Assembly (NCBI RefSeq): GCF_003018235.1
Contig: NZ_CP027437.1
Length of the DNA stretch: 64,000 nucleotides
Reading direction: 5' to 3' (one strand)
Origin: Escherichia coli
GTDB taxonomy: Bacteria; Pseudomonadota; Gammaproteobacteria; Enterobacterales; Enterobacteriaceae
In this document: positions 1,287 to 35,909 of the stretch, piece by piece
Layout: each line of letters starts with the position of its first letter
Position numbering within the stretch: the first letter of the stretch is position 1
Notes under the pieces: generated by a model
Told to the model about the DNA's origin: nothing
Databases searched by the model: none
Seen by the model: only the letters and a program-made list of their open reading frames with translations
Position numbers and translations under genes: made by a program

Positions 1287-4200
1287 TTAAGGAAAAATAA
1301 CCCCGTATTCTTCAAACGCAGCTCTAGCCGCTGCTTCAGATGCAGCGTTCTGAGTTCCAGTATTTCCGAAATGATAATGACCACTGTGAGGGGCTATATC
1401 AGTACCGAATCGTCCATTCACAACAGTAGCCTCTCCCGCCGCAAGAACTGGTTTTCCATTTGCAATTGCAGCATGAGAAATTTCTATCCCATCTTGCATT
1501 TTTGGTGCAGTTAATAGAGTGCCATCCTCAAGAAGGACATACTTTATATCGCCAGCTTCATCAGCCATATCTGCAAAACGTGGGTCTGATGGTTTCATCG
1601 GTTCAACACCGGCCTCTCTCATTGCAGCCAATTCCTCATCTAAATGTTCCGGTAATTGATTTTTAAACGGGCACCCAATAAAACCCCACGGATCACACCA
1701 GCCCACCGGGTCATGCACATACGACTGCGTGTTCATCCCGCCGCTCAGTTTCAGCGGGTCCTGGCTTAAATACTGCCCCGTTCCGGCATCGTAGTAGCGG
1801 TGTAAATTATACCACAGCCCGCTCTCCTCATCCCGCCACTGGCCCATGAAGCCCGCATCACAGCTTTCACGCTCACTGTCCGGCGAGTCGTTTGCTGCCG
1901 GAAGTCCCCACAGGCTGCGGTGTTTCGTCCACACCTTCTGGCCGTTCGCGCTGTACATCTCCTGTGGTGCGCCGTCCGGGCCGGTCACTATCGGGTAAAA
2001 ATGGCTCCGGTCATCATTCGCCGCCCGGCTTTCCTTTGCCAGCAGTTCAAACCCGTCACGGTAATGCCACTGTTCCCGTAGCGCCGGGCTGCCGTCTGCG
2101 TAGCACTTCTCACTGATGGAAAGCGCCATGCCCTGCCACTGGTAGCGCATTTCACTGATGGCGTGGCCTTGCTGCTTCCATGCAGCACGGATAACGCAGC
2201 GTTTTGCGGTTCTCCGGCCAAAGGCGTCGTAGCTGTACTGCCATACCTCACCGTCTGGTGTCTTTATCTCGCGCAGACGGTCAAAATCGTCCCAGCGGTA
2301 GCGCCACTCCTGTGGGCGAAAGCCGCGTTTTTGTTCTGTGCGCTTTGTCACCCTGCCGCAGGCGTCGTATTCGTAGCGGCTGTCGCCCGCCTGAGTCACA
2401 CATTCACGGCTGTACTGGTGCTGCGACAGAATGCCGTTTATCCGGCTTTCCGCTATCTGCTCGTTTACCGTATAGCGGTAGCGTTCTTCCTGCGCCGGGC
2501 CACCGGCGTCCAGCCGCAGTACGCTGGTTATCTGGTCGCGGGCATCGTACTGGTAGCGCGTTTCCCGCTCCGTGCGCGTTTTCGACCACACTTCATGCCC
2601 GGTCAGGCGGCCCGATTTATCCCACGCGTAGCGGTGTTCGCCCAGCGGTCGCCACGACGCCACGCTCTGGTGACCGCCAGCCAGCCGCTCTGCGCCCTGT
2701 TTTTGCCATGCCGTACGCCCGCAGGCGTCATATCCCTGCTCCTGCATATACACCGCATGGTTCAGCGGCGTCTGTGCCAGCCAGCTTTCCTCATTCTCCG
2801 GGCGGTAACGTCTGCTTTTTTCCAGCCCGGCGGGGGAATGACCGAAGTCCATCCGGTGGCCGTTGCTGCGGTAGCCCATGAGAATGCCCGAAGCATCGTA
2901 TTCTCTCTGTGTTTCCCCGTCCGGCGTTGTGGTGCCCGCCAGCCGTCCGGCTTCGTCGTAACGGTACTCCGTGCGCTGGCCATCCTGCTCTTCCGCCACC
3001 AGGCGATGACGTTCGTCCCACTCCAGTTTTACCTCGCTGGTCAGCGTGTAACCTGCTTCACTGGCATCACTGCGCTCATACACCTGCGCGCTCACCATCC
3101 GGTCATAATGGTCGTACTGATAACAGAGTTGCTGATGCTCGCCGCTGATGGTCGTCACCCGGCCATAGCCATCCCGCGCATAGCGCCATACGCTACCGTC
3201 CGGGCGGTGTTTTTCTGCCAGTCGGCCCTGTTCATCACGGATATAGACGGTTCTGCGTCCGGACCAGTCATCCTCCCCGGCCATCTGGCCCGCTGCATCA
3301 TAGTGCAGCCGCCACTGCTGGTTGCCGCTGCGCGTAAGCTGCGTCAGCCTTGCGGCACCGTCGTAGTTGCAGAGTATCCGCTGCCCGCCCGCGTCTTCCA
3401 CTTCCCGCAGCAGGTCAAATGCCCCGTGGCGGTAGCGCGTGGCCTGCCCCATGGCCCCGGTGTGGAGGGCGATTTTGCCTTCACCGTCATAGCGGAAGGT
3501 TTCCACGCCGCCATCGGCCCGGATAACCGCACTCAGTTTCTCATGCGGGTTATCAGCACCGGGGCGGTACTGCCAGTTCATGCTGCGCCCTTCCGCATCC
3601 ACCAGCCCCGTCAGCCGCAGCCAGCGGTCTTCCGTGTAATGGGTCGTGCGGCCTTCAGCATCCGTATGGGAAAGCAGGCCACCGTGGGCGCTGTAGCCCC
3701 ACTGTTCGTGGCTGCCGTCCGGGTATGTCACTTCCTTCAGCAGACCGTCTTCGGTATGACGGTACTGCCATTTTTGCCCGTTCACTTCCCGCCGGATAAG
3801 GTTCCCTTCGGCGTTATAGCTATAAGCTGCCGTGGTGTGATGGTCACGGTAGGCCGTTACCTGGCCGAACTCATCCCGCTGCCATTCACGCTTGCGCCCG
3901 TTCTCGTCCGTTTCGCTCAGGATACGCCCGGCGTAGTCGCGTTTTATCTGTGTGATACGCCCGCCCGGCTGGCGGATACACAGCGGCTGGTCGTATTCGT
4001 TACGCTCCCATTCAGTGATACGCCCCAGCGGGTCACGCTGTTTTTTCAGCAGCCAGGATTCATCGAACCACAGCGTGGTGGTGGCTCCGGTGGCGTCGGT
4101 ATAATCGGTTCTGCGCTCATCAGGGAAGTAGCGGAAGGTGTCGTTATACAGGCCTTCCTGTGTGCCTGTGGCAGTCACCCGGCCTTCATCGTCATAGCGC

Positions 4201-5813
4201 AGGTGGAAGTGCGTCGGGCCATTGTCGCGCCAGGAACTCAGCCAGCCCTGTTCGGTATAGGTATAGTGCAATGCACCATTAAAGCGGGTCTGTACATCAC
4301 GCAGCCGCTGCTCATCGCCGTGGCTGATATAGTCGTAACGCACCAGCTCGCTGCCGTCTGACTCGTCGGTCACACGGAATATCTGCCCCTGCGGGCCACA
4401 CCTCACCCGCAGACTCAGGCCGCTACTGTGGGTTACGTTTGTCAGGTGGCCGATGGCGTTATAGGTGAAGCGAATTTCGTTGCGGTTGCGGTCTTTTATT
4501 ACTGTTAGCCGCAGACGACGTGCGCCGGGGGAGATGGGCGTAAAGATATAACCCAGTTGTGAGTATTCGTCGAAAATAATAGCCCGCTCACGGTTTCCCA
4601 GGAGGCGATAGTGCGGGACAAGCAGGTTACGGCTACTGTATGGTGCCTGCTCCGTGGAGTAGGCCGGACATAGCCCCTCAGCATCAAAGTAGGTGACGTT
4701 TTTCCCGTTGCTATCGAACTCCAGAAACTGCGACCAGTTACACAACCAGCGACTGCCCAGCAAACCACTAACCGGATGTCGGCCTGTATAAGCACGTTTC
4801 AGCGTCAGCGGTAAAATATGCGAATAGTTGAAATCAGTTCGGTAATCCAGATATTCACCCGTTCCGGTATCCACCGGATCGCTGAACCCCTGACTGATAC
4901 GCTCATTGGCGGCTCTGTTTAACTGCTTTGCTCCCCATAGAGCTGTTAACACCTCCAGACTTGATACAACAGATTGTTCCAGTACCGTCATATCTGCATT
5001 AATCGGCCCATACTGTCCGGTTGTCTTATCAGCCGTGATGGTTTTACATCCTTCCTGAATAACTGCCGAGCAGGTAATTTTATGGCCCTTACGCGCCAGC
5101 GGCAGGCTGTTGACGGAAATAATTTTGCTCCCTTCCACTATCTGCGGAGGAGGACTGCCCGGATCCTTACTACATTCAACCGGATCAGTGACGCGAGCTA
5201 CCGCTTTTCCTTCAAAAAAAACATTAGGTGAGCCTTCTACAATCTGCCCGGTTTCAGATGCCCAGCGGGAACCAATTACCATCGCTGCACCACCGACAAA
5301 TCCACCAGCTAATCCCCCGGCCCCGGCAGCAACGGTGGCAGCAAGCACACCCAATGCGGCGCCCCCTGTAGCGACAACCAGAGCCCCCACTGCAATCCCT
5401 ACGATAAGTCCACCGATTAACCCACCAATAGCACCCAGAAAGGAATTGTTATGAACAATGTGATGACCCACACACGCCGGTATATCTGTTGGGCCGGAAA
5501 CAGCGTGATCTTTACCCCAGGTATCCATGAACCAGTCACCTGCTTTGGTGCCCAGCCATCCCCCCAGCATCCCGCCAGCCAGTCCGGCAATCAAAGGGCC
5601 TCCAAATCCTGCAACAGCTTTGGCTATTCCGGCTGCACAGGTATTTGCTGCGGCGGCTGCCAGTCCCACCTTTGCCGTTGCTCCCACCATGCTGACAGCC
5701 ATTATTCCAGTACTGGCAATATGTCCTGTGGTAGCAATACTCTCCACTGTTTCGGCATTACTGTCCCGTTGGTCCAGCTCCGCTAACTTCTCCTGCGCGC
5801 TTTTTTCCGTCAT
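1287..5813 (-). CDS. Rhs-family T6SS effector: N-terminal Gly/Ala-rich transmembrane region plus PAAR-like domain, YD-repeat shell, DPxG autoproteolysis motif (VHDPVGWCDPWGF), about 130-aa C-terminal toxin domain of unknown type
   Basis: 1508-aa ORF. Many YD repeats (YDxxGR-type), PAAR-like region (VTDPVECS...KGHKITCSA), C-terminal DPVGWCDPWGF followed by a divergent tail. Preceded by a DUF1795/EagR-like gene. Confidence 0.9.
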   Translation of the reverse strand: MTEKSAQEKLAELDQRDSNAETVESIATTGHIASTGIMAVSMVGATAKVGLAAAAANTCAAGIAKAVAGFGGPLIAGLAGGMLGGWLGTKAGDWFMDTWGKDHAVSGPTDIPACVGHHIVHNNSFLGAIGGLIGGLIVGIAVGALVVATGGAALGVLAATVAAGAGGLAGGFVGGAAMVIGSRWASETGQIVEGSPNVFFEGKAVARVTDPVECSKDPGSPPPQIVEGSKIISVNSLPLARKGHKITCSAVIQEGCKTITADKTTGQYGPINADMTVLEQSVVSSLEVLTALWGAKQLNRAANERISQGFSDPVDTGTGEYLDYRTDFNYSHILPLTLKRAYTGRHPVSGLLGSRWLCNWSQFLEFDSNGKNVTYFDAEGLCPAYSTEQAPYSSRNLLVPHYRLLGNRERAIIFDEYSQLGYIFTPISPGARRLRLTVIKDRNRNEIRFTYNAIGHLTNVTHSSGLSLRVRCGPQGQIFRVTDESDGSELVRYDYISHGDEQRLRDVQTRFNGALHYTYTEQGWLSSWRDNGPTHFHLRYDDEGRVTATGTQEGLYNDTFRYFPDERRTDYTDATGATTTLWFDESWLLKKQRDPLGRITEWERNEYDQPLCIRQPGGRITQIKRDYAGRILSETDENGRKREWQRDEFGQVTAYRDHHTTAAYSYNAEGNLIRREVNGQKWQYRHTEDGLLKEVTYPDGSHEQWGYSAHGGLLSHTDAEGRTTHYTEDRWLRLTGLVDAEGRSMNWQYRPGADNPHEKLSAVIRADGGVETFRYDGEGKIALHTGAMGQATRYRHGAFDLLREVEDAGGQRILCNYDGAARLTQLTRSGNQQWRLHYDAAGQMAGEDDWSGRRTVYIRDEQGRLAEKHRPDGSVWRYARDGYGRVTTISGEHQQLCYQYDHYDRMVSAQVYERSDASEAGYTLTSEVKLEWDERHRLVAEEQDGQRTEYRYDEAGRLAGTTTPDGETQREYDASGILMGYRSNGHRMDFGHSPAGLEKSRRYRPENEESWLAQTPLNHAVYMQEQGYDACGRTAWQKQGAERLAGGHQSVASWRPLGEHRYAWDKSGRLTGHEVWSKTRTERETRYQYDARDQITSVLRLDAGGPAQEERYRYTVNEQIAESRINGILSQHQYSRECVTQAGDSRYEYDACGRVTKRTEQKRGFRPQEWRYRWDDFDRLREIKTPDGEVWQYSYDAFGRRTAKRCVIRAAWKQQGHAISEMRYQWQGMALSISEKCYADGSPALREQWHYRDGFELLAKESRAANDDRSHFYPIVTGPDGAPQEMYSANGQKVWTKHRSLWGLPAANDSPDSERESCDAGFMGQWRDEESGLWYNLHRYYDAGTGQYLSQDPLKLSGGMNTQSYVHDPVGWCDPWGFIGCPFKNQLPEHLDEELAAMREAGVEPMKPSDPRFADMADEAGDIKYVLLEDGTLLTAPKMQDGIEISHAAIANGKPVLAAGEATVVNGRFGTDIAPHSGHYHFGNTGTQNAASEAAARAAFEEYGVIFP

Positions 5814-5843
5814 CTGTTCGTCCTTCCCGCTGAACTGGCTGGG

Positions 5844-6275
5844 TTATTTATCCTGCGGCATTCCAAAACAAAAATTCAATAATGCTCCCCGCATCGCTTT
5901 ACGATCCTCCTCTGCCAGCGCCTGTGTTGAGGAATAGGTCAGCGTCAGTACTTGTCGCTCGTTCAGAATTACCAGCAGCAACTGCTGTATCATCACCCCC
6001 TTGTTATCCCAGCTAAATTCCCAGTATTCCGCCGGGCGCTCCTGTACATGACAGCGTTCTTCGACGGTGAACACCATTTTCGACAGTTCGGTACGGAATT
6101 TCTTTTTCTGCACCGCCAGATAGTCATCAAACTGCGCACCATCCGGCAATATTTCACGGGTAACAACAACATTAGCCCCGGCAATCGCACTTAATACCGG
6201 TGTCAGAATATTCATACTGCTGTCCTGCCAGTTTCCTGGCAGGGTGAAATGTCCTTCATTAATTAGATATTGCAT
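5844..6275 (-). CDS. EagR-like (DUF1795) effector-associated chaperone for the downstream PAAR-Rhs
   Basis: 143 aa; N-terminus MQYLINEGHFTLPGNWQDSSMNIL matches the typical DUF1795 start pattern (recalled). Sits directly upstream of an rhs with an N-terminal TM region. Confidence 0.7.
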   Translation of the reverse strand: MQYLINEGHFTLPGNWQDSSMNILTPVLSAIAGANVVVTREILPDGAQFDDYLAVQKKKFRTELSKMVFTVEERCHVQERPAEYWEFSWDNKGVMIQQLLLVILNERQVLTLTYSSTQALAEEDRKAMRGALLNFCFGMPQDK

Positions 6276-6480
6276 TCTCTTCCCCTGACATTAATTAAAA
6301 AAAATACCATTGATTTAATAATTGAATAACACCAAGATACTTGCATCATGAGTTTATATAGTTTTCCCGCCAACCTATATTTGTTTTTTCACACAAATAA
6401 GAATGTACTTACACACAAACCAATAAATCCACTGGTATCTAAAATAATTATTCTTTACATTATCTTAATCACAGATTTTA

Positions 6481-6930
6481 CTAATGGTTTCTCAAAAAAA
6501 TCTTTGCGTAATTAGGATTATTTAACTCTAAGTTCACCACATTAGATTTAAAATTATAAAAATCCGCATCTCTATCATCCTCTGTAACCTTTGAATCAAC
6601 CGTCGACCACACATTCGTATAAAAACTACACTCATGCTTTCCTGGCGTAATATGGTAATCTCTGGCAATTTGTACATAGTCCCCCACCTTCATTTCTCCG
6701 GGAGAGATTTTGTAATATTCCCCTTGTCCAAGGTTGTACATTACACCTGAATAACGAATCTTCTTGCCATCACATTCAACACTCAATTGATCGGAGCTCG
6801 GATATTTACCTTGAGATATGTACCTGACATCTATATATAATGGAATTTCACCATTATTTTTAACACGTACAGCAACATAAACGTCATCTTCTTTGGGTAT
6901 AACATCCACAATAACCATGTAACATGGCAT
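6481..6930 (-). CDS. Hypothetical protein downstream of vgrG; candidate immunity/partner for the VgrG C-terminal domain
   Basis: AT-rich ORF starting just after the vgrG stop; no obvious signal peptide; start codon uncertain (ATG at 6930 or 6918). Confidence 0.4.
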   Translation of the reverse strand: MPCYMVIVDVIPKEDDVYVAVRVKNNGEIPLYIDVRYISQGKYPSSDQLSVECDGKKIRYSGVMYNLGQGEYYKISPGEMKVGDYVQIARDYHITPGKHECSFYTNVWSTVDSKVTEDDRDADFYNFKSNVVNLELNNPNYAKIFLRNH

Positions 6931-11863: not shown

Positions 11864-14800
11864 TCACAGCGCTCGCTCCGGGCAGGCGAAGCGTTGCAAT
11901 AGTCCGCGATCCACTGGGTCAAAATCCCGTCCGGCGGTGATTTCCAGTATCACCCGCCGACCATCAAAGCTGTACTCCACCTGCTGTGTTCCCCGTACCG
12001 CCGTTTCTTGCGCTTTTCCCGCATCCAGCAGGTGAAACAGCGCCCACGGTCCATTAGTCAGCAGCGTCGAGGTGTCCTGGCGGATGCGCGGGCTGGCGGT
12101 TATTTCCGCCATTGAGCCGTTGCGCGGACCCGGCCAGTTAACTTTCAGCGGCCTGACCGGGCCGTGAGCGTAACGCAGTACCTGGCCGTCAATGTCAATC
12201 ACCAGTTCGGTGATGGCCGGGTCCATATCCACGACGCGGACCTGCATCGCCCATGAGAACTTTTTCCCTCCGTCGCCGTTAAAAAACACGCTGCGGATCT
12301 GTTTCGCCTCCTGAAACGGCGTCAGGTCCGGCCCCTGTAAGGTCATGTTGCCTTCGGTCGGTTTGTAGCGCCACGGATTGCTGGCGGTGTCCGCCTGTGG
12401 GGCCAGTTGCTTCGTCCAGAAGGCATCCAGCACGCCGCCGCTGGCAAAGATACGGTTAAAATCGTCCGCGCTGACCTCCTGCGGGCTGTCGGTGAAGGGG
12501 TAGCGCCCGTCGATGGCGTCGCGGCACTCATCACCGATCACCGCTTCCATCTGCGCGTTCAGCACTTCACCGGTGCCGGCGTTGATTTTTCGCGTTCCCT
12601 GCTGCGTGAGATCCAGCAGAATATTTTTCAGCGGCGCGGGCAGTTTTGCCGCCTCCAGTTGCAGTTTATCCGCCGCAGAAATGCGCCCCGGCAGAGTGCT
12701 CGCAGCCAGCGCACTGTCGGCAATGGTGAGCTGAGTGTAATACTCATTGAGCATCGTCAGCAGCGAATTTAATTGCGGCACGCCGCCGCCCTGCCCGCTG
12801 TCCGTCCGCCCGGAAACCACTTCCCGCAGGGCGGCGAAGCGGTCTTCCACCAGTGATTTTTCCAGCCGCTCTTCCGGGTGAATGTCCTGCAACAGCTTCG
12901 CCGTCTGCACCGCTTTTCCCGCATTGCCGGAGAGCCGGTCCTGCGCGCGCTGGGCCATCTGCTTTTGTCTGGCCTGCGCATCCAGAGGCGGCACCAGCGT
13001 GGTCTGCACCACCACCGCTTTACTCAGGCGCATCAGCGGGGAATCCGGCGAGGCCAGAGTGCGGAGCACCTGAAGGTCATACGCTAGTCCAGGGCTACCG
13101 TCCTCCCCGGCGCTGTTGATGCTGTGAATGCTTGCCAGAAAATCCTGCCATCGGCGAGCATATTCAGCCAGGTACAGACGACGTACCTCACGGGTAACCG
13201 GGAGTTCCTGCCCCGGTAGCTGACTCATCACAATATCAGTCGTTTTTTTTTGCGCACTTTCCCGGCCCATCACCCAGGCGTCGTCCGCTGATGCGGCGGC
13301 GACAAACTCCGACAGCCGTTTGTCGAACAGTTCCCGGTAGCCTTCGCGGGTGAAGATGCCGGGCACGCCCCTGTCCAGCGGCGCGCCATCCGTGCGGACA
13401 AAAACCGTTCCCGCATCCGCGCCCACAGCGCGAACCAGCGAAAACTCCTGCGGTGCTTCGCTCTCCATGGAAGCCAGGGCTCGAGTGTAGATACGCTCAG
13501 TGCTGTTATGGCCGTCAAGGAAGGCCCGCGCCTGGCGGATCAGCCCCTCATCTTTTTCCCAGGGCGAATGCACCACGCGGCTGCCGTCAAACAGGGCGTC
13601 AATATGCTCCAGCACGGCTGCGCGACCGCCAAACTCCGCTACGCTGTCGCGGTTGTCCAGATCGTTCAGCACCCAGGCGTGGATCTCCGCCGCGTTGTAT
13701 TTGTCCTCGTGGTCCTTATCGAGGTTCAGCAGCAGATAAACATGCAGGGCGTCATAGGCGGCTTTGCTGTCCTGACGCGCAATCGCATCTGAAAGCACGT
13801 ATTCCATTCGTTTCACCAGCGGAGGGAGCAGTAGCTGGTCCAGCAGGCGGTCATACAGGGATGCGACACTCTCCATCACCGGCGGGACGCTGTAAAGACC
13901 ATAACGCCAGGCCAGCGGCGGCGAGTCCGGGTCCATCCCCGGCCAGGCAGAGAGCGCCCGCGCCTGATTCAGCAGGGCCGGAACAGGCTGCATAGCAGGT
14001 TTTCCGGTATAGGCTTTGACATCACCATCCAGTTGGGTCGTCCGGCTGGCGATTTCATTCAGATAACCGCTGTTACCCTGCTGGCTACCCTGCATTCCCT
14101 GCCACAACCAGAAAACCAGCGCCAATACCAGCAGATGCCCGCCGGTACGCAGCAGGCGATAACGCCAGGCCCATTGAAGATTCGGCTCCACCAGGTGCGC
14201 TTCGCGGAAGATAAACCGCGTCAGTAGATCGTGCAGGAAATAGCTGCGGTTGCCGTCCGGCAGGGTATGGGATGGGGAATCTGCCTTCCCTTTGATCGCC
14301 CGGACAAAACGCTGCCAGATGCCTGTCTGATCGGCCACCGCGTCTGCCTGCGCCTGCGCGGCACTGGTGAAAAATACGCCGCGCAGGGTGTTGTTAAGCT
14401 GGGTAGCATCAAATTTTGAATCGAGGAAAATCTGTTCAATAGCTTCCAGCAGCGGCGCGCCCAGCGCGGCAAATTCACGCGGGAAGCGGTAGAGCCGCTG
14501 ACGGCTTTTAAGGTCGTACTCTTCCTGCAACCGGGTATCCAGCCCCTGATCCAGCCGCTGTGTCAGGTTTGCCAGTTCCCGGCCACAGAGCGCATGCAGC
14601 GACTGCGGATCGCTGGCGTGACGCCTGCGGCTGTAAGGCAGGGTGAAGCCCCAGACCTGGGCTCGCAGGTGACTGGTCAACCCACGGAAATACTCCGTAA
14701 AGCCCGGCAGCAGATCCATCTTGGTGACAACCAGATAGACCGGAAAACGAATGCCCAGCGTCTCCCGCAGTTCCGCCAGCCGCGCACGCAGAGCTGCACA

Positions 14801-15730
14801 GGCAGCCAGCCGTTCCGCCGGGGACTGCGCGGTCAGATCCGCCACGTTCAGCGTCAGGATCACGCCGTTGAGCGGTGCGCCTGGGCGGTGTTTACGCAGC
14901 AGCCCCAGAAACCCCTGCCATTCCCCGGCGTTACGCTGGGTCGCGCTGATTTCGCCGCCGTCATCGTGTCGGGCATAGCGCCCGGCGGTATCAATAAGCA
15001 CTGCTTCGTTGGTAAACCACCAGTCGCAGTGCAGCGTGCCGCCGCCCGGCACGGTGAGGATATGCGCGGTCTGCTCCATCTGCTCCGCCAGCGGAAACTG
15101 TAGCCCGGTGTTAAGCAGCGCAGTGGTTTTACCATCGCCGGGGCTGCCGATAACCATAAACCACGGCAGTTCGTACAGAAAACGCTTTCCTTCCAGGACT
15201 TTTCGCCAGCCAGGAAGATCCACACGCAGTTGTTTCAGTTGCCGGATGGCGCGGCTGACAATATGGCTGACGGTACGCAGGTCGGCTTTAATTTCCCCTG
15301 CCACAGGTACGTCTTCCCCACGCGGATGCAGGAAACGGCGCAGCAGTTGTTCATCCAGACGCAGCGCCCGCCACAGCCGGTACAGGCCATACAGAGCATA
15401 AGTCAGCAGGATCAGACCGATAAGCGTCAGACGCAGCCACAGCGGCGCAAATGGATGAACATCACCGAGGGACAGCAGGGGTGAAACAAAACCGATGACC
15501 AGGCACAGAACCGTCACGCCAATGATGCTCATCGACCAGTTAACCAGCCACAGTGCGAGGAACATCAGTAACAGAACGATGGTGACTACCCGACTTCCCA
15601 CGGACGCGAGCGGATGCAGGGTGTCAAACGCCACCAGCGGCCCAACAAACCAGACCAGCAACGCCAGCATCACCACGCCAACAATGGCCAGCGCGCGGCG
15701 GGAAAACAGCATACTGAGAAATTTTTGCAT
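11864..15730 (-). CDS. tssM: TssM (IcmF-like) T6SS membrane complex protein
   Basis: 1288 aa; N-terminal TM helices; Walker A GSPGDGKTT; large periplasmic C-terminal domain. Confidence 0.9.
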   Translation of the reverse strand: MQKFLSMLFSRRALAIVGVVMLALLVWFVGPLVAFDTLHPLASVGSRVVTIVLLLMFLALWLVNWSMSIIGVTVLCLVIGFVSPLLSLGDVHPFAPLWLRLTLIGLILLTYALYGLYRLWRALRLDEQLLRRFLHPRGEDVPVAGEIKADLRTVSHIVSRAIRQLKQLRVDLPGWRKVLEGKRFLYELPWFMVIGSPGDGKTTALLNTGLQFPLAEQMEQTAHILTVPGGGTLHCDWWFTNEAVLIDTAGRYARHDDGGEISATQRNAGEWQGFLGLLRKHRPGAPLNGVILTLNVADLTAQSPAERLAACAALRARLAELRETLGIRFPVYLVVTKMDLLPGFTEYFRGLTSHLRAQVWGFTLPYSRRRHASDPQSLHALCGRELANLTQRLDQGLDTRLQEEYDLKSRQRLYRFPREFAALGAPLLEAIEQIFLDSKFDATQLNNTLRGVFFTSAAQAQADAVADQTGIWQRFVRAIKGKADSPSHTLPDGNRSYFLHDLLTRFIFREAHLVEPNLQWAWRYRLLRTGGHLLVLALVFWLWQGMQGSQQGNSGYLNEIASRTTQLDGDVKAYTGKPAMQPVPALLNQARALSAWPGMDPDSPPLAWRYGLYSVPPVMESVASLYDRLLDQLLLPPLVKRMEYVLSDAIARQDSKAAYDALHVYLLLNLDKDHEDKYNAAEIHAWVLNDLDNRDSVAEFGGRAAVLEHIDALFDGSRVVHSPWEKDEGLIRQARAFLDGHNSTERIYTRALASMESEAPQEFSLVRAVGADAGTVFVRTDGAPLDRGVPGIFTREGYRELFDKRLSEFVAAASADDAWVMGRESAQKKTTDIVMSQLPGQELPVTREVRRLYLAEYARRWQDFLASIHSINSAGEDGSPGLAYDLQVLRTLASPDSPLMRLSKAVVVQTTLVPPLDAQARQKQMAQRAQDRLSGNAGKAVQTAKLLQDIHPEERLEKSLVEDRFAALREVVSGRTDSGQGGGVPQLNSLLTMLNEYYTQLTIADSALAASTLPGRISAADKLQLEAAKLPAPLKNILLDLTQQGTRKINAGTGEVLNAQMEAVIGDECRDAIDGRYPFTDSPQEVSADDFNRIFASGGVLDAFWTKQLAPQADTASNPWRYKPTEGNMTLQGPDLTPFQEAKQIRSVFFNGDGGKKFSWAMQVRVVDMDPAITELVIDIDGQVLRYAHGPVRPLKVNWPGPRNGSMAEITASPRIRQDTSTLLTNGPWALFHLLDAGKAQETAVRGTQQVEYSFDGRRVILEITAGRDFDPVDRGLLQRFACPERAL

Positions 15731-15949
15731 TATTGTTCAGAACTCCACATTGTAATCATCAACAATAAAAGGCCACAAGCTGAAAATGTTTTCCCGATTC
15801 AGCACAAAAAAATAGATGGCGATCCGAAACATCACTAAACCTGAAAAATAAAATTTCGCAGCATCATTTTATTTACATCATCACGCAACAACGTTGTCAT
15901 TATTAGGTTTATGCTCAATATTTTAATTTATATACAAAATCATTCGAGT

Positions 15950-16050
15950 TGCATCAAGGCGGCAAGCGAGAGGATCCCGAAGCATTTATTCCGGTAAGTG
16001 ACTCGGGTGAACGAGTGCAGTCAACGCAGAGGCAACCTGAAGGATAAGGT
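15950..16050. repeat. ERIC/IRU-like intergenic repeat
   Basis: Contains GGTAAGTGACTCGGGTGAACGAGTGCAGTCAACGCAGAGGCAACCTGAAGG, closely resembling the ERIC core (AAGTAAGTGACTGGGGTGAGCG...), in the gap between the Tldi1-like gene and tssM. Confidence 0.5.
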
Positions 16051-16057
16051 GTATACA

Positions 16058-16513
16058 TCAAAATTCTCTGGATAGAATAATATAGCCATTGAATCTTACG
16101 GAACACTCATTTTCATTAATAAGGCCGGATGCAATAACAACATCTTTCCCCCTGTCATTGTTAATATAGGTATATTTTGCCACAATAGACTTAGCATGAT
16201 TTTCATAGTAGCTATCAAAATACGATTTTTCATCTAACATTGCCTTCTTATTTCTGGCTTTGTCCTTCTCATAATCAATCTTAGCCAGAGACTCTGCATA
16301 AAACTTAGACACAGGAGAAACATCAAGAACTTCTACCCTTGTTTTATCTCTTAAAATAGTAGAAGAATTTATATTCAAATCACTTTTCATTGCATCAAAT
16401 AACGACAACTCTATTGAGGCTCCAACCGTAGCGCAACCATCATTTTGTGCATATGAAATTGCAGGTATGCCAGCTAACAGGCAGATTATTACCTTGAACA
16501 TATTAGTCCTCAA
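16058..16513 (-). CDS. Periplasmic protein, candidate Tldi1-like immunity protein
   Basis: 151 aa with signal peptide (MFKVIICLLAGIPAISYAQ); AT-rich; overlaps the upstream effector-like gene. Confidence 0.5.
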   Translation of the reverse strand: MRTNMFKVIICLLAGIPAISYAQNDGCATVGASIELSLFDAMKSDLNINSSTILRDKTRVEVLDVSPVSKFYAESLAKIDYEKDKARNKKAMLDEKSYFDSYYENHAKSIVAKYTYINNDRGKDVVIASGLINENECSVRFNGYIILSREF

Positions 16514-16871
16514 CCACTAATATTTTATCAGTACTGGCAGCAATAACCTTGCGATAAGGTAAATCCAGAATTATACAGCCATCAGAGGCTTCTCCTGGAT
16601 GGGCTGAACTCTCTCCGTGTATCATGAAACCGTCACGCCCGCACATTTGATTTTCGGGGTAAGGCGTGAGCCTCATCGTCCATGCTCTTGTTCTTGCATG
16701 AAAAAATGCAGGTCCAATTGTATATGAACCTCTTGGCAATGGTCCCTTATCTCTTACACACTCATTAACAGAGTCATCTTTAAAACCCGGTCTGCCAGAA
16801 TATCTGGCATTGAACTGATAGCTACCATTTAAATAAAATGAACGTGCATTAATTTTGTATACCCAAGGCAT
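16503..16871 (-). CDS. Tlde1-like (DUF2778, L,D-transpeptidase-fold) candidate T6SS effector
   Basis: 122 aa; motif IHGESSAHPGEASDGCIIL (His ... x14 ... Gly-Cys) resembles the L,D-transpeptidase/Tlde1 catalytic motif; AT-rich; followed by a signal-peptide protein. Confidence 0.5.
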   Translation of the reverse strand: MPWVYKINARSFYLNGSYQFNARYSGRPGFKDDSVNECVRDKGPLPRGSYTIGPAFFHARTRAWTMRLTPYPENQMCGRDGFMIHGESSAHPGEASDGCIILDLPYRKVIAASTDKILVVED

Positions 16872-16962
16872 TACACAATCTCCTTTTTGTTAAAAAATAA
16901 TAGTCAGATCAGAACACCATATTTTATTGTTAGTTTTCTGACCTAACCATAGTCATATTAAT

Positions 16963-18279
16963 TCACTCCACCACCAGAATTTCCACCCGACGGTTCTGCG
17001 CCCGTCCGGTTTTAGTGCGGTTATCGGCCACCGGTACGGTATCTCCTTTCCCGACAACCCGGATCCGGCTGGCCGGAATACCACCGGACGTCAGCAGTGA
17101 AGCCACTTCCGCCGCCCGTTTTTCCGACAATACCTGGTTGGACGGGAATTCAGCGGAGTGGATCGGCTGGCTGTCCGTGTGGCCGGTCACCGTCACCGCG
17201 CCCCCCACACGCGCAATCTCACGCGCGGCCTTGTCAATCACCGGGCGCAGCGCATCATTCACGGTTTTCTGCCCCGGTATAAACATCGTATCGCCACGAA
17301 AGATTACACGGCTGTGATGGTCATCTTCCTCCACCGTCAGCAGGCCACGGGCGATTTCGTTCGCCAGCAGGATTTTCAGCCGCAGTTTATGCACTGGAAC
17401 GGGTGGCGGCGGTAGATTTTTACCAATGGCGTCGATACGCTGTTGTACGGTTTCGGTGGCGAGGTTCATCCGGTGGCTGTAAAGGCCAAACAGCGTCAGC
17501 ATCACCAGCAGGGCGATTCCGGCGCTCAGCCAGACCGGCACCCGGCGCATCCGCCGCATTCGCCCACTGACGGCACCGGCAAAACCCGGCGAGAGCGTCG
17601 GCGTGATCGGATCGCGACGCTGGACCAGTTGAGTCAGCAGTTGCTGGCGGATATCGTCCAGTTGTTTACGCCCGTCAGGCCGTACACTGTAGCGGCCTTC
17701 AAAACCCAGTCCCAGAATGTGGTAAATGATTTCCAGTACATCGCTGTGCTCCTGGAAGCTGGCGGCCAGACGCCCGATTATCTGAAACAGCTTGATGCCG
17801 CCTTCACTTTCGCCATGAAAAGTCACCAGCAGGCTCTTCCCGGCCCAGACACCGCGTCGCCCCCAGACGGTGTTGTTGGCAGCTTCATCCAGCGCCGTGC
17901 ACACGCAGTAACGTACCGCCAGCACATGTTCGCGGCGCAGGTTTGCCTGGTCGCACAGCGTCTGATACCGGCGGACTTCACGCTCCAGTAGGGCGCGATA
18001 ATGTTCGACAAAACCAGGGGAAAGTTCACGGGGCATTTGCGCCAGCGCGCATAACAGAGGGCTGGCCGCCGCCAGAAGAGGATTCACAGCAGCAGTGATC
18101 TCAGCCAAGCGGAGCTTCAAATCTGGCCCGTCTTCAACCACCACCTTTATATCTTCCCTGCGAAGGCTGTCCTGGACGAGCGTATCGTAACCGTCATTAT
18201 CAGGCGACCTTGTTCCCCTTATTGAAGGCTGTAATTGCAGGGTATTCACCGCAGGTTGCGTCAGAATATCGTCGGTCAT
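16963..18279 (-). CDS. tssL: TssL (DotU-like) fused to a C-terminal OmpA/MotB-type peptidoglycan-binding domain
   Basis: 438 aa; central TM segment; C-terminus ...VTGHTDSQ...SEKRAAEVASLL...NRRVEILV is a typical OmpA-like motif. Confidence 0.85.
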   Translation of the reverse strand: MTDDILTQPAVNTLQLQPSIRGTRSPDNDGYDTLVQDSLRREDIKVVVEDGPDLKLRLAEITAAVNPLLAAASPLLCALAQMPRELSPGFVEHYRALLEREVRRYQTLCDQANLRREHVLAVRYCVCTALDEAANNTVWGRRGVWAGKSLLVTFHGESEGGIKLFQIIGRLAASFQEHSDVLEIIYHILGLGFEGRYSVRPDGRKQLDDIRQQLLTQLVQRRDPITPTLSPGFAGAVSGRMRRMRRVPVWLSAGIALLVMLTLFGLYSHRMNLATETVQQRIDAIGKNLPPPPVPVHKLRLKILLANEIARGLLTVEEDDHHSRVIFRGDTMFIPGQKTVNDALRPVIDKAAREIARVGGAVTVTGHTDSQPIHSAEFPSNQVLSEKRAAEVASLLTSGGIPASRIRVVGKGDTVPVADNRTKTGRAQNRRVEILVVE

Positions 18280-20223: not shown

Positions 20224-20709
20224 TTAAATTTCTTTGTTAGCTTTGAAATCGTAACCTGCCGTGATAGTGCCGCCGCTGCCGCCCTGCTGGTTCTGCACCA
20301 CGTATTCCTGCTTCACGGTGCTGAAAGAGAGTTCGACTGACTCACGAGAAGCTATTTCTCCCCCCTGACTCCCGCTGGGCGAAACCATTGCTACGATCAA
20401 ATCAGTAAAACTGTATTTGAGGTATTCCAGTGGGTTGCCGCCTGCTTTGCGCATGGTCAGCACGGCTTTCGGAATGTGTTTGCCGGAGGCGCAGTATTTG
20501 AACAGGTTCGGGCTGGCGCGATCGATATAGTGTTCAAATGAAAGATTAGTTACGGATACCTTGCCGGATCCCAGACCGCTACCCGCGTGCATGGTGGACT
20601 CCTGGTGGATATTCCAGCGCCAGCTCAACACCTCAATTTCATTTTTATGTTTGTCATCCATTGACTCGCCGTCAATGCCGTCAATTTTCAGAAAAATATC
20701 ATAAGACAT
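20224..20709 (-). CDS. hcp: Hcp (TssD) tube protein
   Basis: 161 aa; MSYDIFLKIDGIDGES... is a typical Hcp N-terminus. Confidence 0.92.
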   Translation of the reverse strand: MSYDIFLKIDGIDGESMDDKHKNEIEVLSWRWNIHQESTMHAGSGLGSGKVSVTNLSFEHYIDRASPNLFKYCASGKHIPKAVLTMRKAGGNPLEYLKYSFTDLIVAMVSPSGSQGGEIASRESVELSFSTVKQEYVVQNQQGGSGGTITAGYDFKANKEI

Positions 20710-20820: not shown

Positions 20821-21192
20821 TCATTTCTTAACACTCCTGGAAATCAACTCATCCAATTCATTTCCATGAATGAAATCTATACATTTCATAGTACTGAAGT
20901 CTGATGCTATAGAACCATCATATTTTAATGATGCATATTTTCTCGCTATCGCATCTATTTCACGAAAAATTTCTACAGGTTGCTGACCATATTCAAGATA
21001 AGCACTAGCTGTAGCTCTGGCATCATCCTGAACGACATCATTTTTATACACCAATGACAAACAATGACTCAAAGCCCAATTGCGTAAGAGCTCTGACTGA
21101 GAATATTTTTCAGTCAATGCTTCCTGAGCATAAGATAATTGACATATCTGTAGCCCACAGAGGCCCCAAAATATTAATTTCAGCCATTTCAT
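20821..21192 (-). CDS. tai4: Tai4-like periplasmic immunity protein
   Basis: Signal peptide (MKWLKLIFWGLCGLQICQLSYAQE); start ATG overlaps the tae4 stop (ATGA), suggesting translational coupling. Confidence 0.6.
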   Translation of the reverse strand: MKWLKLIFWGLCGLQICQLSYAQEALTEKYSQSELLRNWALSHCLSLVYKNDVVQDDARATASAYLEYGQQPVEIFREIDAIARKYASLKYDGSIASDFSTMKCIDFIHGNELDELISRSVKK

Positions 21193-21674
21193 GGTAGTAC
21201 CCACAGGATTCCGACTTCAGGAACAAATGTTCCATTATCTGGATCATTTAGTAGATGGCATTGATCTGAACAAACGCTACCATTCCATAATGTTACATGT
21301 CCCCGAGCATTGCTCCAGCCATGGCCTTTTACAACAATGATGCCTTTTTTACCTGTAAAGTCACCAGGAGTTGGATTATTAATGACAAGATCTGGCTTCC
21401 CCATAATCTGGGTCAGATGTTCAATCATATCATTCACACGATAAATATAAAATTTCTTATCAGAACCACTAACCGTTGCATAGGGAGAACTACGGGATAT
21501 CGGAAATCCCGTAGCATTCAAAACATAACTCATACGAATTGGACAAGCATTTTCAAAATAGCCACCTGAAATATTTTGCCCAACATTTCCGCCAATTATA
21601 AGACCGACATCAGCAACGGGAAAATTCACTTTTCCAAATGCCGACCATGCCTCATTAAATGAAGGTCTACCCAT
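21189..21674 (-). CDS. tae4: Tae4-family peptidoglycan amidase effector
   Basis: 161 aa; Cys44 (ENACPIR) and His126 (ARGHVTLW) are positioned as I recall for the Tae4 catalytic dyad; AT-rich; followed by a signal-peptide protein. Confidence 0.65.
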   Translation of the reverse strand: MGRPSFNEAWSAFGKVNFPVADVGLIIGGNVGQNISGGYFENACPIRMSYVLNATGFPISRSSPYATVSGSDKKFYIYRVNDMIEHLTQIMGKPDLVINNPTPGDFTGKKGIIVVKGHGWSNARGHVTLWNGSVCSDQCHLLNDPDNGTFVPEVGILWVLP

Positions 21675-21726: not shown

Positions 21727-23241
21727 TCAGGTATTACCCTGTTTTACCGACGGCAGTTTTGTGACCAGACGCAGTGATCCTGTTAACCCTTCAAGCTGAA
21801 AATGCGGGCGCAGGAAGAATTTGGCATCGTAATAATCCGGATTACCTTCCACCTCTTCCACCACCACTTCAGCAGCTGCCAGTGGGCGACGAGCTTTGGT
21901 TTCCTGTGAGGAGTTCACCGGATCGGCATCGACGTAGTTCATGATCCACTCATTGAGCCAGCGCTGCATATCTTCACGCTCTTTGAACGAGCCGATCTTG
22001 TCGCGCACGATACATTTGAGGAAGTGCGCAAACCGTGAACAGGCGAAAAGATATGGCAAACGAGCTGAGAGATTGGCGTTGGCCGTAGCGTCCGGATCGT
22101 AATACTCCTGCGGTTTTTGTAGAGACTGAGCGCCAATAAAGGCGGCGTAATCAGAGTTTTTGCGGTGGATAAGTGGGATAAAACCATTTTTCGCCAGTTC
22201 AGCTTCACGACGGTCAGAGATGGCAATTTCTGTCGGGCATTTCATATCCACGCCGCCGTCATCGGTCGGGAAGGTATGACAGGGCAGATTTTCCACCGCG
22301 CCACCAGATTCAACACCGCGGATCAACGTACACCAACCGTAATGTTTGAAAGAGCGGTTGATATTTACACCCATTGCATAGGCGGCATTGCTCCAGACAT
22401 ATTTGCTGTGATCTGCGCCATCCGCATCTTCTTCAAAATCAAACTCATCGACAGGGTTTGTTTTCGCACCATAAGGCAAACGGGAGAGAAAACGTGGCAT
22501 CGTCAGGCCAATGTAGCGAGAATCCTCACTTTTTCGCAGCGAGTTCCACGGTGCGTATTCGAGGTTTTGGGTCACAATTTTGGTCAGATCACGCGGGTTA
22601 GCCAGTTCCTGCCAGGAGTCCATCTGCAACACTGACGGAGAGGCCCCAGCAATAAACGGCGCATGGGCTGAGGCTGCCACTTTGGCAATGGAGCCGAGCA
22701 GATCCACATCCGGTGGCGTGTGATCAAAATAATAATCCGCAATGATACAACCGTAAGGTTCTCCGCCTAACTGTCCATATTCAGCTTCATAAAGCTTTTT
22801 GAACATGGGGCTTTGATCCCAGGCGATCCCTTTGTAACGCTTCATATTTTTCCGCAATTCATCCTTTGAAAGATTCATAAAACGGATTTTTAATTTTTCA
22901 TCGGTTTCAGTGTTGTAAACCAAATGTTCCATCCCACGCCAGGAGGACTCCAGTTTCTGAAATTCCGGATGACTCAGGATTAGTTTGATCTGCTCAGTTA
23001 ATTTGAAATCGATCTGCTCAATAATCGCAGCAATACTTTTATAAGCGTCGTCACTGACGGTGACGGTATTTGTCAAAGCCTGTTGGGCCAGCGTCTGAAC
23101 TGCTGCCTCAACAGCCTTTGCTGCCTGAGGTGTCTTGGGACGGAAGGCTTTATCCAGGAGCGAATCAAATTCAGTGTCCTGATAGGCAGTGGTTTGCGCA
23201 GCAGAGAGTTCGCCAGTCGCCAGAAGAGTATCGTTTACCAT
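21727..23241 (-). CDS. tssC: TssC (VipB) sheath large subunit
   Basis: 504 aa; conserved TssC sequence throughout. Confidence 0.92.
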   Translation of the reverse strand: MVNDTLLATGELSAAQTTAYQDTEFDSLLDKAFRPKTPQAAKAVEAAVQTLAQQALTNTVTVSDDAYKSIAAIIEQIDFKLTEQIKLILSHPEFQKLESSWRGMEHLVYNTETDEKLKIRFMNLSKDELRKNMKRYKGIAWDQSPMFKKLYEAEYGQLGGEPYGCIIADYYFDHTPPDVDLLGSIAKVAASAHAPFIAGASPSVLQMDSWQELANPRDLTKIVTQNLEYAPWNSLRKSEDSRYIGLTMPRFLSRLPYGAKTNPVDEFDFEEDADGADHSKYVWSNAAYAMGVNINRSFKHYGWCTLIRGVESGGAVENLPCHTFPTDDGGVDMKCPTEIAISDRREAELAKNGFIPLIHRKNSDYAAFIGAQSLQKPQEYYDPDATANANLSARLPYLFACSRFAHFLKCIVRDKIGSFKEREDMQRWLNEWIMNYVDADPVNSSQETKARRPLAAAEVVVEEVEGNPDYYDAKFFLRPHFQLEGLTGSLRLVTKLPSVKQGNT

Positions 23242-24741: not shown

Positions 24742-26223
24742 TTAATCCGTTTCAAAAATAATCTGTTCATCCTCATCAACACGAATGCGGATTTGCGTGA
24801 TGGCCGTTTTCTCTGTCATCGCCTGCAACCAATAACGGGACAGTTGTGGGAGGATATGTTGTTCGATATAGCCGATGAGCAAACGAGCGCCGGTTTCGTG
24901 CATCGGGCAGCGCGACACAATATGCGTAATCAGTTCATCGCCATACACCAGTGAAACGCCATGCTGCTCCGCCATCCGATCCATCAATCTGCCAAGATGC
25001 AGGCGGGCAATAACACCACGCGCGGTCTCATCCAGCGGTAAATAAGGAATAACCGTCACACGCCCCAGGAAAGCCGCCGGGAAGTGTTTACGTAACTCCG
25101 GCATTAACGCCTCTTTTAGTCCTGCCGAATCAGGCATCAGCGCCGGATCCTTTTCGATATGGCGTTTGTACTCGCTCCAAGTGGTTGCGCCGATGGTGCG
25201 CAGGGTGCCACGCGCCAGCGCCGGTTTCAGCAGGTTGGCAGCATCCCCCGTACCGGATGTACCACCAGCGCCCACCAGCGTGTGAACTTCATCAACAAAA
25301 AGGATTACCGGCTGCGGCGAGCGCGCGGCCTCTTCTAGCAACGCTTTCAGGCGGGATTCAAATTCACCCTTCATGGACGCCCCAGCCAGCAGCGCTCCAA
25401 CATCCAGTGACAGCAACCGCACGTTACGCAGTGAAGGCGGTACTTCCCCCCCGGCAATCGCCAGCGCGAATCCTTCCACCACTGCCGTTTTCCCGACTCC
25501 CGCTTCGCCGGTCAGTAGCGGGTTGTTCTGGCGACGGCGCAGCAGAATATCCGTCATAGTACGGATCTCGTGTTCGCGACCGGTGACCGGATCGATATTG
25601 CCTTCACGGGCCAGCGCAGTCATGTCCTGGCAGTATTTCGCCAGCGCGGATTTGCTTCCGGTTGATTCGCCGGCAAAGACCTGGCTAGCTTCCCCCGGTA
25701 CTGCAGAATTTAAATCCGAGCCGTCATAAGGCATTTCTGTTAATTCAGGAGATGAAGTGATTAAAGACGGAAGAATATCTAATAGTTCATCTACCGGTAG
25801 CTCTGCCAATGGCGCACAAATATTTTTTAACACCCGACACAATTCTGGCGTGGTTAACCAGGCAAGTAATAACCATCCACTACGAATTTTTTTATCGCCA
25901 AAGCGGATACTTGCCAACATCCAGGCTTTTTCAACAGAAAGATCGATATGATGGGAAAAATCGTTAATTACACTCGCTCCGGCAGGCAATATATTCAATT
26001 GCTGAATTAACGCCTTCTCAACATCAGCAGATGTTATTTGATAATGTCGAAGCACATTGTGAATGTCATTCTCTGGTTGTTGTATTAACTGATGCAACCA
26101 ATGCGTCAGTTCGACATAAGGATTAGCGCGTAATTTACAGAACGTCGTCGCAGATTCCAAAGATCTAAACAAAGATTTGGTTAGCTTTCCATACAGTGCA
26201 CTGCGCGAAACAGGAGTGTCCAT
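24742..26223 (-). CDS. clpV: ClpV (TssH) AAA+ ATPase with an apparent in-frame internal deletion (N-domain plus first ATPase domain joined to the C-terminal small domain)
   Basis: 493 aa against about 850-900 expected. Walker A GEAGVGKT and Walker B ILFVDEVH of the first domain run to ...IEKDPAL, joined directly to ...[24 protein letters not shown]...GARLL..., the ClpB/ClpV C-terminal signature. Confidence 0.8.
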
Positions 26224-31669: not shown

Positions 31670-31679
31670 GGATAATTTA

Positions 31680-32726: not shown

Positions 32727-32732
32727 CAGAAG

Positions 32733-32765
32733 TGGCCAGAATTTATATTATCTGGCCATTTTTTA
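32733..32765 (+). terminator. Rho-independent terminator after tssA
   Basis: Hairpin TGGCCAGA-atttatatta-TCTGGCCA followed by a T-run. Confidence 0.7.
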
Positions 32766-32857
32766 AATCATATTCGTTTTACTTGCGGAGTGAAAAATTC
32801 TCGCTTCACCAAAACGACGAAAGCCCGAATCAGTAATGATTCGGGCTTTCTGAATAT

Positions 32858-32934
32858 TGGCGGAACGGACGGGACTCGAACCCGCGACCCCCTGCGTGAC
32901 AGGCAGGTATTCTAACCGACTGAACTACCGCTCC
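32858..32934 (-). tRNA. aspV: tRNA-Asp (GUC)
   Basis: Reverse complement gives GGAGCGGTAGTTCAGTCGGTTAGAATACCTGCCTGTCACGCAGGGGGTCGCGGGTTCGAGTCCCGTCCGTTCCGCCA; lies next to dnaQ as in K-12. Downstream hairpin at 32821-32848. Confidence 0.97.
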
Positions 32935-33066
32935 GCGTTGTGTTCCGTTGGGAACGAGGCGAATATTACGGATTGCCTCTCCCTTCGTCAACGGTTTTTC
33001 TCATCTTTTGAATCGTTTGCTGCAAAAATCGCCCAAGTCGCTATTTTTAGCGCCTTTTACAGGTAT

Positions 33067-33798: not shown

Positions 33799-33862
33799 AG
33801 CGGTCATTTATGTCAGACTTGTCGTTTTACAGTTCGATTCAATTACAGGAAGTCTACCAGAG

Positions 33863-35067: not shown

Positions 35068-35079
35068 ACTGAGAGGTAA

Positions 35080-35838
<759 letters not shown>

Positions 35839-35909
35839 TAAAACTTTCTTGTCATCGGCTCCGTTCGCCGTTATGATCGGTCGTCTTTTAAGCAACTATT
35901 GACACACAC

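Follow-up and report, generated by a model that had tools for sequence, protein, structure and literature searches.

A two-gene cassette between tssL and tssM of an Escherichia coli type VI secretion island most probably encodes a Tlde1b effector and its immunity protein

We analyzed a 64,000-nucleotide stretch of Escherichia coli DNA (contig NZ_CP027437.1 of RefSeq assembly GCF_003018235.1), hereafter the window, which carries an island for a type VI secretion system (T6SS), and studied two small genes on its minus strand between tssL and tssM. The two genes very probably form a Tlde1-family T6SS effector–immunity cassette, and sequence relationships place the effector most probably in the Tlde1b subfamily (first named Tae6/Tai6). 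Specifically, the effector gene (16503–16871, minus strand) encodes a 122-residue protein of the Tlde1 family (PF10908/DUF2778; probably Tlde1b/'Tae6') with a predicted L,D-transpeptidase fold, and the immunity gene (16058–16501, minus strand) encodes a secreted protein of 147 residues that belongs to the SciR family, probably Tldi1b ('Tai6'). An initial annotation of this stretch had suggested a Tlde1-like (DUF2778) effector next to a protein with a signal peptide, and profile, fold, catalytic residues and genomic context agree with that proposal. As a Tlde1-family T6SS effector, the 122-residue gene product is already known and not new. RefSeq names it 'tlde1 domain-containing protein', the family is published, and the founding study (bioRxiv 2020.02.18.954545, Sibinelli-Sousa et al.) describes an orthologous pair, known from Salmonella; the pair is thus already catalogued, and as a discovery it matters little.

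The effector (13.7 kDa, isoelectric point 8.5) matches the Pfam family Tlde1_dom (PF10908, formerly DUF2778) with an E-value of 4.8e-12 and 46.8 bits, residues 23–104 aligning to positions 5–98 of the 120-position model, and PF10908 is present in all full-length effector homologues. An exhaustive search returned 1,667 cluster representatives at E ≤ 0.001, and on these sequence comparisons the family match is far above chance. No NCBIfam model matched the effector. Searches of PDB sequences with the single effector protein or with a 21-sequence profile did not recover Tlde1a, the family member of Salmonella Typhimurium, and the profile yielded a marginal YkuD match alone (4LPQ, E 0.13). Because these searches missed Tlde1a, the link to it needed Pfam, fold comparison and a published alignment. 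An AlphaFold2 model of the effector built from 21 homologues reached a predicted local distance difference test score (pLDDT) of 91.2 and a predicted TM-score of 0.85. Foldseek with this model returned L,D-transpeptidase-fold proteins throughout the 50 matches listed, among which Tlde1a had the top query-normalised TM-score (0.64); the nearest structural neighbors include two dedicated L,D-carboxypeptidases, Pgp2 and Csd6. The initial annotation had made its proposal depend on an L,D-transpeptidase fold, and this is the fold that the model and Foldseek gave.

The published family alignment (supplement of Lorente Cobo et al. 2022) contains both Tlde1a (ACY86862.1) and WP_138370965.1, a protein 72% identical to the effector. 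It places effector residues C38, R79, H85, S96, D97, G98 and C99 on Tlde1a residues C37, R115, H121, S128, H129, G130 and C131. BLASTP aligns the effector with Tlde1a at 24% identity, gives the same pairing for R79, H85, S96, D97, G98 and C99, and pairs C77 with Tlde1a C111. In Tlde1a, which turns tetrapeptide stems into tripeptides, the H121A and C131A substitutions abolish toxicity (bioRxiv 2020.02.18.954545). The corresponding effector residues lie within IHGESSAHPGEASDGCIIL, which contains His85, Asp97, Gly98 and Cys99. The catalytic motif His85-x13-Cys99, HGESSAHPGEASDGCI, was located by alignment with relatives and Tlde1a and spans 16572–16619 on the minus strand, with the codons of His85 at 16617–16619, Asp97 at 16581–16583, Gly98 at 16578–16580 and Cys99 at 16575–16577. 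The motif had earlier been read as H-x14-GC; the His and the Gly-Cys are there, but the spacing is H-x12-G-C, with His and Cys 14 positions apart. The effector-family profile aligns HG...AS-D-GC on HG...AS-H-GC of 4LPQ, and the 14-residue His–Cys spacing is found in both.

Conservation was counted over an alignment of 243 effector relatives. His85 is kept in 238 of the 243, Gly98 in 233, Cys99 in 232 and Arg107 in 227, and Arg79 is invariant in the 21-sequence alignment. The effector sequence S96-D97-G98-C99-I100 departs from the full literature motif HXX14-17-(S/T)HGCh in that the His before Gly-Cys is missing. The residue at this position in the relatives is D in 93, E in 49, H in 33, N in 17 and T in 11, so that D or E precedes Gly-Cys in 58%. 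Because it is usually acidic, SDGC is, judged from these counts, the norm of the effector's branch, in which the His before Gly-Cys is not a defining residue. The initial annotation had correctly noted SDGC in place of S/T-H-G-C; its suggestion that the protein may be divergent on that account has to be toned down. Cys38 and Cys77 covary (98 relatives have both, 134 have neither and 11 are mixed) and correspond, by the alignment and BLASTP together, to the C37–C111 disulfide of Tlde1a, a pattern that fits a protein predicted to work in the oxidising periplasm. Residues ~51–90 of Tlde1a, its capping subdomain, are without counterpart in the alignment row of WP_138370965.1.

The two genes lie end to end. 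An AGGAG sequence (16880–16884, minus strand), read from the sequence as the effector's Shine-Dalgarno element, is located 8 nt upstream of its ATG. For the immunity gene, a mechanical listing of open reading frames gives 151 residues from a TTG start (16058–16513, minus strand), whereas the ATG at 16501 gives 147 residues, follows the effector's TAA stop by one base and is the start annotated by RefSeq. MFKV is the start of most full-length immunity homologues, and some Salmonella entries are called four residues shorter. From this comparison, the start is probably the ATG at 16501, and the two genes therefore abut with no overlap. The 151-residue frame with a signal peptide that had been reported to overlap the 3′ end of the effector gene does exist, and a signal peptide is predicted in it, but the two genes seem to overlap merely through the choice of the TTG as start codon. 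A GAGGA Shine-Dalgarno element (16507–16511, minus strand; TTGAGGACTAATATG) is positioned 5 nt upstream of the ATG, within the last codons of the effector gene, and this placement suggests translational coupling of the two genes. Both are AT-rich, as had been noted at the outset, with a G+C fraction of 0.42 for the effector gene and 0.345 for the immunity gene compared with 0.59 for tssL and 0.61 for tssM. A promoter and terminator scan gave 7 versus 4.4 and 2 versus 1.0 of the shuffled expectation, which is not clearly above it, and we make no regulatory claim.

The partner is probably a Sec-exported periplasmic immunity protein, as its sequence indicates. Its residues 1–19 (MFKVIICLLAGIPAISYA|Q; 16445–16501, minus strand) form a predicted Sec signal peptide without a lipobox, called from hydropathy and a cleavage-like site: residues 1–16 have a mean Kyte-Doolittle hydropathy of 2.2–2.7 and are followed by the small-x-small site SYA. 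The mature protein of ~128 residues has an isoelectric point of 5.5 and two family-conserved cysteines, C23 and C133. Its AlphaFold2 model has a cystatin/NTF2-like α+β fold, with pLDDT below 50 over residues 1–22. A Pfam scan of the immunity protein matched no family, hence no DUF2195, the family of the Sec-exported protein that neutralises Tlde1a (then Tae5STM), an effector toxic in the periplasm only (bioRxiv 2020.02.18.954545). The immunity protein is ~73–78% identical to Salmonella proteins named SciR. According to the same study, Tae6SF/Tai6SF are encoded in the Salmonella pathogenicity island 6 (SPI-6) of S. Fresno; at that genomic location, beside a Rap1a homologue, S. Typhimurium has retained Tai6 as an orphan (STM14_0332), and Tai6STM does not neutralise Tlde1a (bioRxiv 2020.02.18.954545). 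SciR sits between Rap1a and tssM, as published for STM14_0332, and is apparently this orphan 'Tai6' immunity gene. We equate SciR with STM14_0332, and the Salmonella 122-residue effector with Tae6SF, from organism, size and position.

Of 5,426 complete E. coli genomes, the same 14 carry both effector and immunity gene, and no genome has one without the other. Between E. coli and Salmonella, the effector gene has a ratio of nonsynonymous to synonymous substitution rates (dN/dS) of 0.11 and the immunity gene one of 0.12, and both genes are under purifying selection. Salmonella contigs encoding an 87%-identical effector have the gene order tssJ-tssK-tssL-Tlde1_dom (122 residues)-143 residues-tssM-tagF. 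The SciR-bearing contigs of S. Typhimurium type read tssL-Rap1a-(Tae4-Rap1a)-SciR-tssM with no effector, an arrangement that agrees exactly with the orphan Tai6 as published. The genes form hcp-effector-immunity modules in Gibbsiella, Erwinia and Rahnella: the stop of hcp and the start of the effector gene overlap, the effector is 64–72% identical to ours, and the third gene encodes 144–146 residues that are 44–48% identical to the immunity protein and keep both cysteines. By analogy, these modules argue for Hcp-borne delivery of the effector.

Close effector homologues occur in Citrobacter, Cronobacter, Gibbsiella, Nissabacter, Erwinia, Rahnella and Salmonella, a set closer to the published Tae6 list than to that of Tae7, and Escherichia is among the genera of the Tae6 (later Tlde1b) subfamily (bioRxiv 2020.02.18.954545). 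More distant matches include Burkholderia and Paraburkholderia, both listed under Tae7 in that study. Two side findings concern these relatives. Erwinia mallotivora carries two tandem hcp-Tlde1-immunity modules side by side (3510–6754 of its stretch), the second with a 142-residue effector that matches Tlde1_dom weakly and a 151-residue partner unrelated to SciR (21% identity). This partner, and a candidate immunity protein beside a Paraburkholderia homologue (18% identity), were excluded from the immunity alignment. Two apparent Hcp–Tlde1b fusions, P0054 (204 residues, on a 1.5-kb contig) and P0049 (138 residues, Chimaeribacter), have an Hcp N-terminus (MAIPVYLWLTD...) that runs straight into Tlde1b sequence. 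We did not accept them as real fusions; they are read as chimeras that probably arose by deletions inside hcp-effector modules, and count as evidence of adjacency only.

These observations can be assembled into a working model of the cassette. Sequence inspection of the 122-residue effector revealed no signal peptide, lipobox or peptidoglycan-binding domain, and the protein, having no export signal of its own, would be loaded into the Hcp tube. The SPI-6-like T6SS would then fire it into the periplasm of a neighboring Gram-negative cell, where Cys99, activated by His85, would attack the bond between meso-diaminopimelic acid at position 3 and D-Ala4 (mDAP3-D-Ala4) in peptidoglycan tetrapeptide stems. 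The acyl-enzyme might be resolved by water, an L,D-carboxypeptidase activity producing tripeptides that are no longer acceptors for cross-linking, or in an exchange reaction with a free D-amino acid that Arg79 holds; either outcome would weaken the wall. The immunity protein would be exported by Sec to the producer's periplasm, where it would bind and block effector arriving from sister cells. This analysis provides the family, the fold, the conservation of catalytic residues, the signal peptide, the pairing, the T6SS/Hcp linkage and the purifying selection. Salmonella Tlde1a serves as the analogy for the rest of the model: the chemistry and toxicity of the effector, its passage through Hcp, and neutralisation through direct binding.

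Several points weigh against this model. Asp97 stands in place of Tlde1a H129, a residue that orients D-Ala4 (Lorente Cobo et al. 2022) and is needed for toxicity. The capping subdomain needed for Tlde1a activity is absent from the effector, and the exact reaction may differ. In the literature searched, we found no biochemistry or toxicity for any Tlde1b member. The assignment to Tlde1b and not Tlde1c draws on taxon lists and on the position of the Salmonella orthologue. Finally, the tssH/ClpV gene of this strain (24742–26223, minus strand) encodes 493 residues compared with 879 in the reference. An in-frame internal deletion has removed reference residues ~365–747 (~383 residues), so that the first AAA domain lacks its end and the second is mostly gone, with the junction at a short repeated ...DPAL... 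motif, and the gene scores 577 against an NCBIfam cut-off of 885. Read from sequence, this deletion may make T6SS firing and delivery in this strain doubtful.

In a first alternative, the cassette is kept in this strain mainly for defence, with the immunity gene protecting against Tlde1b-armed neighbors and the effector left undelivered by a crippled T6SS. This is a tangible possibility, if an unlikely one. Besides the loss of most of the second AAA domain, it draws on the related E. coli HCP5S3_I2, with its hcp pseudogene and tagK split by insertion sequence (IS) elements, and on the Typhimurium-type Salmonella genomes that retain the immunity gene alone. However, both genes of the cassette are intact and under purifying selection, and the immunity gene occurs without the effector in none of the 5,426 E. 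coli genomes. Loss of ClpV/TssH lowers T6SS activity, not always to nil, which also counts against a mainly defensive role.

A second alternative keeps the same cassette and changes its chemistry, so that the effector would act mainly by D-amino-acid exchange, by generic L,D-transpeptidation or on another stem-peptide bond, and not primarily as an L,D-carboxypeptidase. We regard it as rather unlikely. The replacement of the D-Ala4-orienting His by Asp97 and the missing capping subdomain speak for it, as does the Tlde1a H129A variant, in which D-amino-acid exchange persists at the wild-type level, cross-linking is gone and carboxypeptidase activity is partly lost (Lorente Cobo et al. 2022). That study found the capping insert in Tlde1a only, with R115 and G130 conserved across subfamilies, and predicted for cap-less subfamilies 'a more general TPase activity' (TPase, transpeptidase), with exchange conserved via R115 and G130 (Lorente Cobo et al. 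2022); both residues are kept here as R79 and G98. The prevalence of D or E among the relatives likewise suggests a selected alternative and not decay. Against this, Pgp2 and Csd6, among the nearest structural neighbors, are L,D-carboxypeptidases, and the lack of toxicity of Tlde1a H129A (Lorente Cobo et al. 2022) means that exchange by itself may be insufficient for killing. A bolder extension, which we consider decidedly unlikely, is that Asp/Glu for His, as seen across the majority of Tlde1b-type enzymes, together with loss of the cap defines a distinct minimal L,D-peptidase toxin, biased to exchange or with another bond preference, whose inhibitor may be an unclassified cystatin-like SciR family plugging the cysteine active site.

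It is very improbable that the effector is a housekeeping L,D-transpeptidase remodelling the cell's own wall. The YkuD-like fold and the catalytic His and Cys would suit such an enzyme, but the protein has no signal peptide, lipobox or peptidoglycan-binding domain and therefore could not reach its own periplasm by Sec. It matches YkuD weakly (PF03734, E 0.0094) compared with the far stronger Tlde1_dom match, is always paired with a secreted partner inside T6SS clusters or behind hcp, and occurs in just 14 of the 5,426 E. coli genomes; its slot is AT-rich and was acquired by horizontal transfer.

The label 'Shiga toxin A subunit' is attached to the immunity protein or SciR in hundreds of Salmonella, E. 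coli and Citrobacter records of GenBank, RefSeq and UniRef, and Salmonella surveys from 2026 (PMC12952584, PMC13101500) count sciR as a virulence factor or as a 'core gene' of the T6SS. The chance that the partner is a Shiga-like toxin A subunit, as those records have it, is practically nil: its weak matches to the NCBIfam Stx2 A-subunit models (E 0.01–0.05) score 13–15 bits against curated cut-offs of 733–736, which is sub-threshold noise, and cover just the N-terminal third of a ~318-position model; it has 147 residues compared with ~315 for an N-glycosidase of the ribosome-inactivating-protein fold; it matches no Pfam family; its model has the cystatin/NTF2-like fold instead of a Shiga-toxin or ribosome-inactivating-protein fold; and it holds the immunity position behind a Tlde1 effector in five genera. 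One practical benefit of the analysis is that the partner's label can be corrected from Shiga toxin A subunit to immunity protein.

The preferred reading, a Tlde1-family effector–immunity cassette, is set in an island with a layout of the Salmonella SPI-6 type, whose end adjoins a tRNA-Asp gene next to dnaQ. As had been called initially, a 122-residue reading frame is present at 16503–16871 on the minus strand and the pair lies downstream of tssL, directly 3′ of it with tssM beyond. The upstream border of the slot is the long form of tssL with an OmpA domain (16963–18279, minus strand; NCBIfam NF005999, 654 bits, and TIGR03350), and the downstream border is tssM (11864–15730, minus strand; TIGR03348, 1059 bits). 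NCBIfam identified genes for Rhs/PAAR, VgrG, TagF, TssM, TssL, TssK, TssJ, TssC, TssB, TssH, TagK, TssE, TssF, TssG and TssA in the window. Hcp was borderline: hcp (tssD; 20224–20709, minus strand), whose product is the probable carrier of the effector, scored 57.9 bits with TIGR03344, just below the cut-off of 58.9, and at the orthologous position RefSeq records an 'Hcp family type VI secretion system effector'. RefSeq names the reading frame after tagK TagJ. Between tssC and hcp there is a second AT-rich effector–immunity pair (20821–21204 and 21189–21674, minus strand; G+C fraction 0.37 and 0.40), which a near-identical RefSeq genome annotates as Tai4 and Tae4; NCBIfam matched neither. ARAGORN placed a 94-nt 'tRNA-His' (30460–30553, plus strand) inside the tssF coding region (28794–30677), probably a false positive.

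The region matches chromosomal sequence of 14 complete E. coli genomes at 98.7–99.9% identity. Their annotation of the genes runs from tssM through a hypothetical protein (in one case "Shiga toxin A subunit") and a "tlde1 domain-containing protein" to tssL. E. coli HCP5S3_I2, the complete genome nearest to ours, has in the same island an hcp pseudogene with an internal stop (22525–23010 of its stretch) and a tagK interrupted by IS3 and IS66 elements (29679–36342 of its stretch); cassette-bearing strains have disabled their T6SS by different routes. Seven genomes that have neither gene contain a relic of the immunity gene, 49 bp long and 100% identical (query 166–214). The relic of E. coli C9 (5001–5049 of its stretch) lies beside a frameshifted IS1, between yafV and tRNA-Asp, and no T6SS genes were found in the 10-kb stretch around it; from this arrangement it looks like the scar of an IS1-mediated loss of the whole island.

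The tssL–tssM junction is a variable cargo slot, with other content in 109 E. coli genomes that have the same flanks; in the six listed, RefSeq gives two hypothetical proteins there. The slot of E. coli PapRG-06-5 (3031–4001 of its stretch) encodes a 224-residue protein, for which Pfam gave no match, and a 95-residue hydrophobic protein, and Salmonella slots hold Rap1a, Tae4-Rap1a or orphan SciR. To the three named variable regions of SPI-6-type islands (VR1–3), the junction adds what behaves as a fourth slot for cargo. Between the immunity gene and tssM, a 327-bp spacer contains a 133-bp dispersed repeat (15925–16057) that 5,425 of the 5,426 complete E. coli genomes carry, with a median of 7 copies. 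The repeat contains GTAAGTGACTCGGGTGAACG and resembles the enterobacterial repetitive intergenic consensus/intergenic repeat unit (ERIC/IRU) element. Rfam applied to 15600–17100 gave two far-sub-threshold matches alone, over the repeat (V_AS5, Ysr49). The immunity gene–tssM junction measures 33 bp in Salmonella.

Among known systems, the canonical YkuD L,D-transpeptidases (PF03734; LdtMt2, 4LPQ) have in common with the effector the fold and the same 14-residue His–Cys spacing, whereas the effector has no signal peptide or accessory domains and the His of SHGC is replaced. Csd6 (H. pylori, 4XZZ) and Pgp2 (C. jejuni, 6XJ7) are 13–15% identical to the effector. They are housekeeping cell-shape L,D-carboxypeptidases with extra NTF2-like domains and their own export, with no toxin role and no immunity pairing.

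Tlde1a/Tldi1a of S. Typhimurium (STM14_0336/STM14_0335; PDB 7UMA, 7UO3, 7UO8) has in common with our pair the active-site Arg, His, Gly and Cys and probably one conserved disulfide, and both effectors are small Hcp-type cargo with a Sec-exported immunity partner. In contrast, the two effectors differ in size (122 compared with 173 residues), in His–Cys spacing (14 compared with 10) and in the Asp that replaces H129, at an overall identity of 24%. The immunity proteins are unrelated, our partner having no DUF2195 match, and the slots are distinct, tssL–tssM here and downstream of tssM for Tlde1a. With neither a capping insert nor a DUF2195 partner, the effector falls outside the Tlde1a subfamily. 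Tlde1b is a compact, 122-residue L,D-peptidase core with Asp for a functional His, and it suits asking what the His and the cap give Tlde1a.

The closest counterpart is Tlde1b/Tldi1b of the S. Fresno SPI-6 (Tae6SF WP_058115706.1/Tai6SF WP_077921582.1), an orthologous pair in the same tssL–tssM slot. The Salmonella effector that we equate with Tae6SF also has 122 residues and is 87% identical to ours, and the immunity proteins are ~73–78% identical. The order tssJ-tssK-tssL-effector-immunity-tssM-tagF is the same, within an SPI-6-like island that in the window adjoins tRNA-Asp. The two differ in host species and in the extra 327-bp spacer with its ERIC-like repeat in E. coli.

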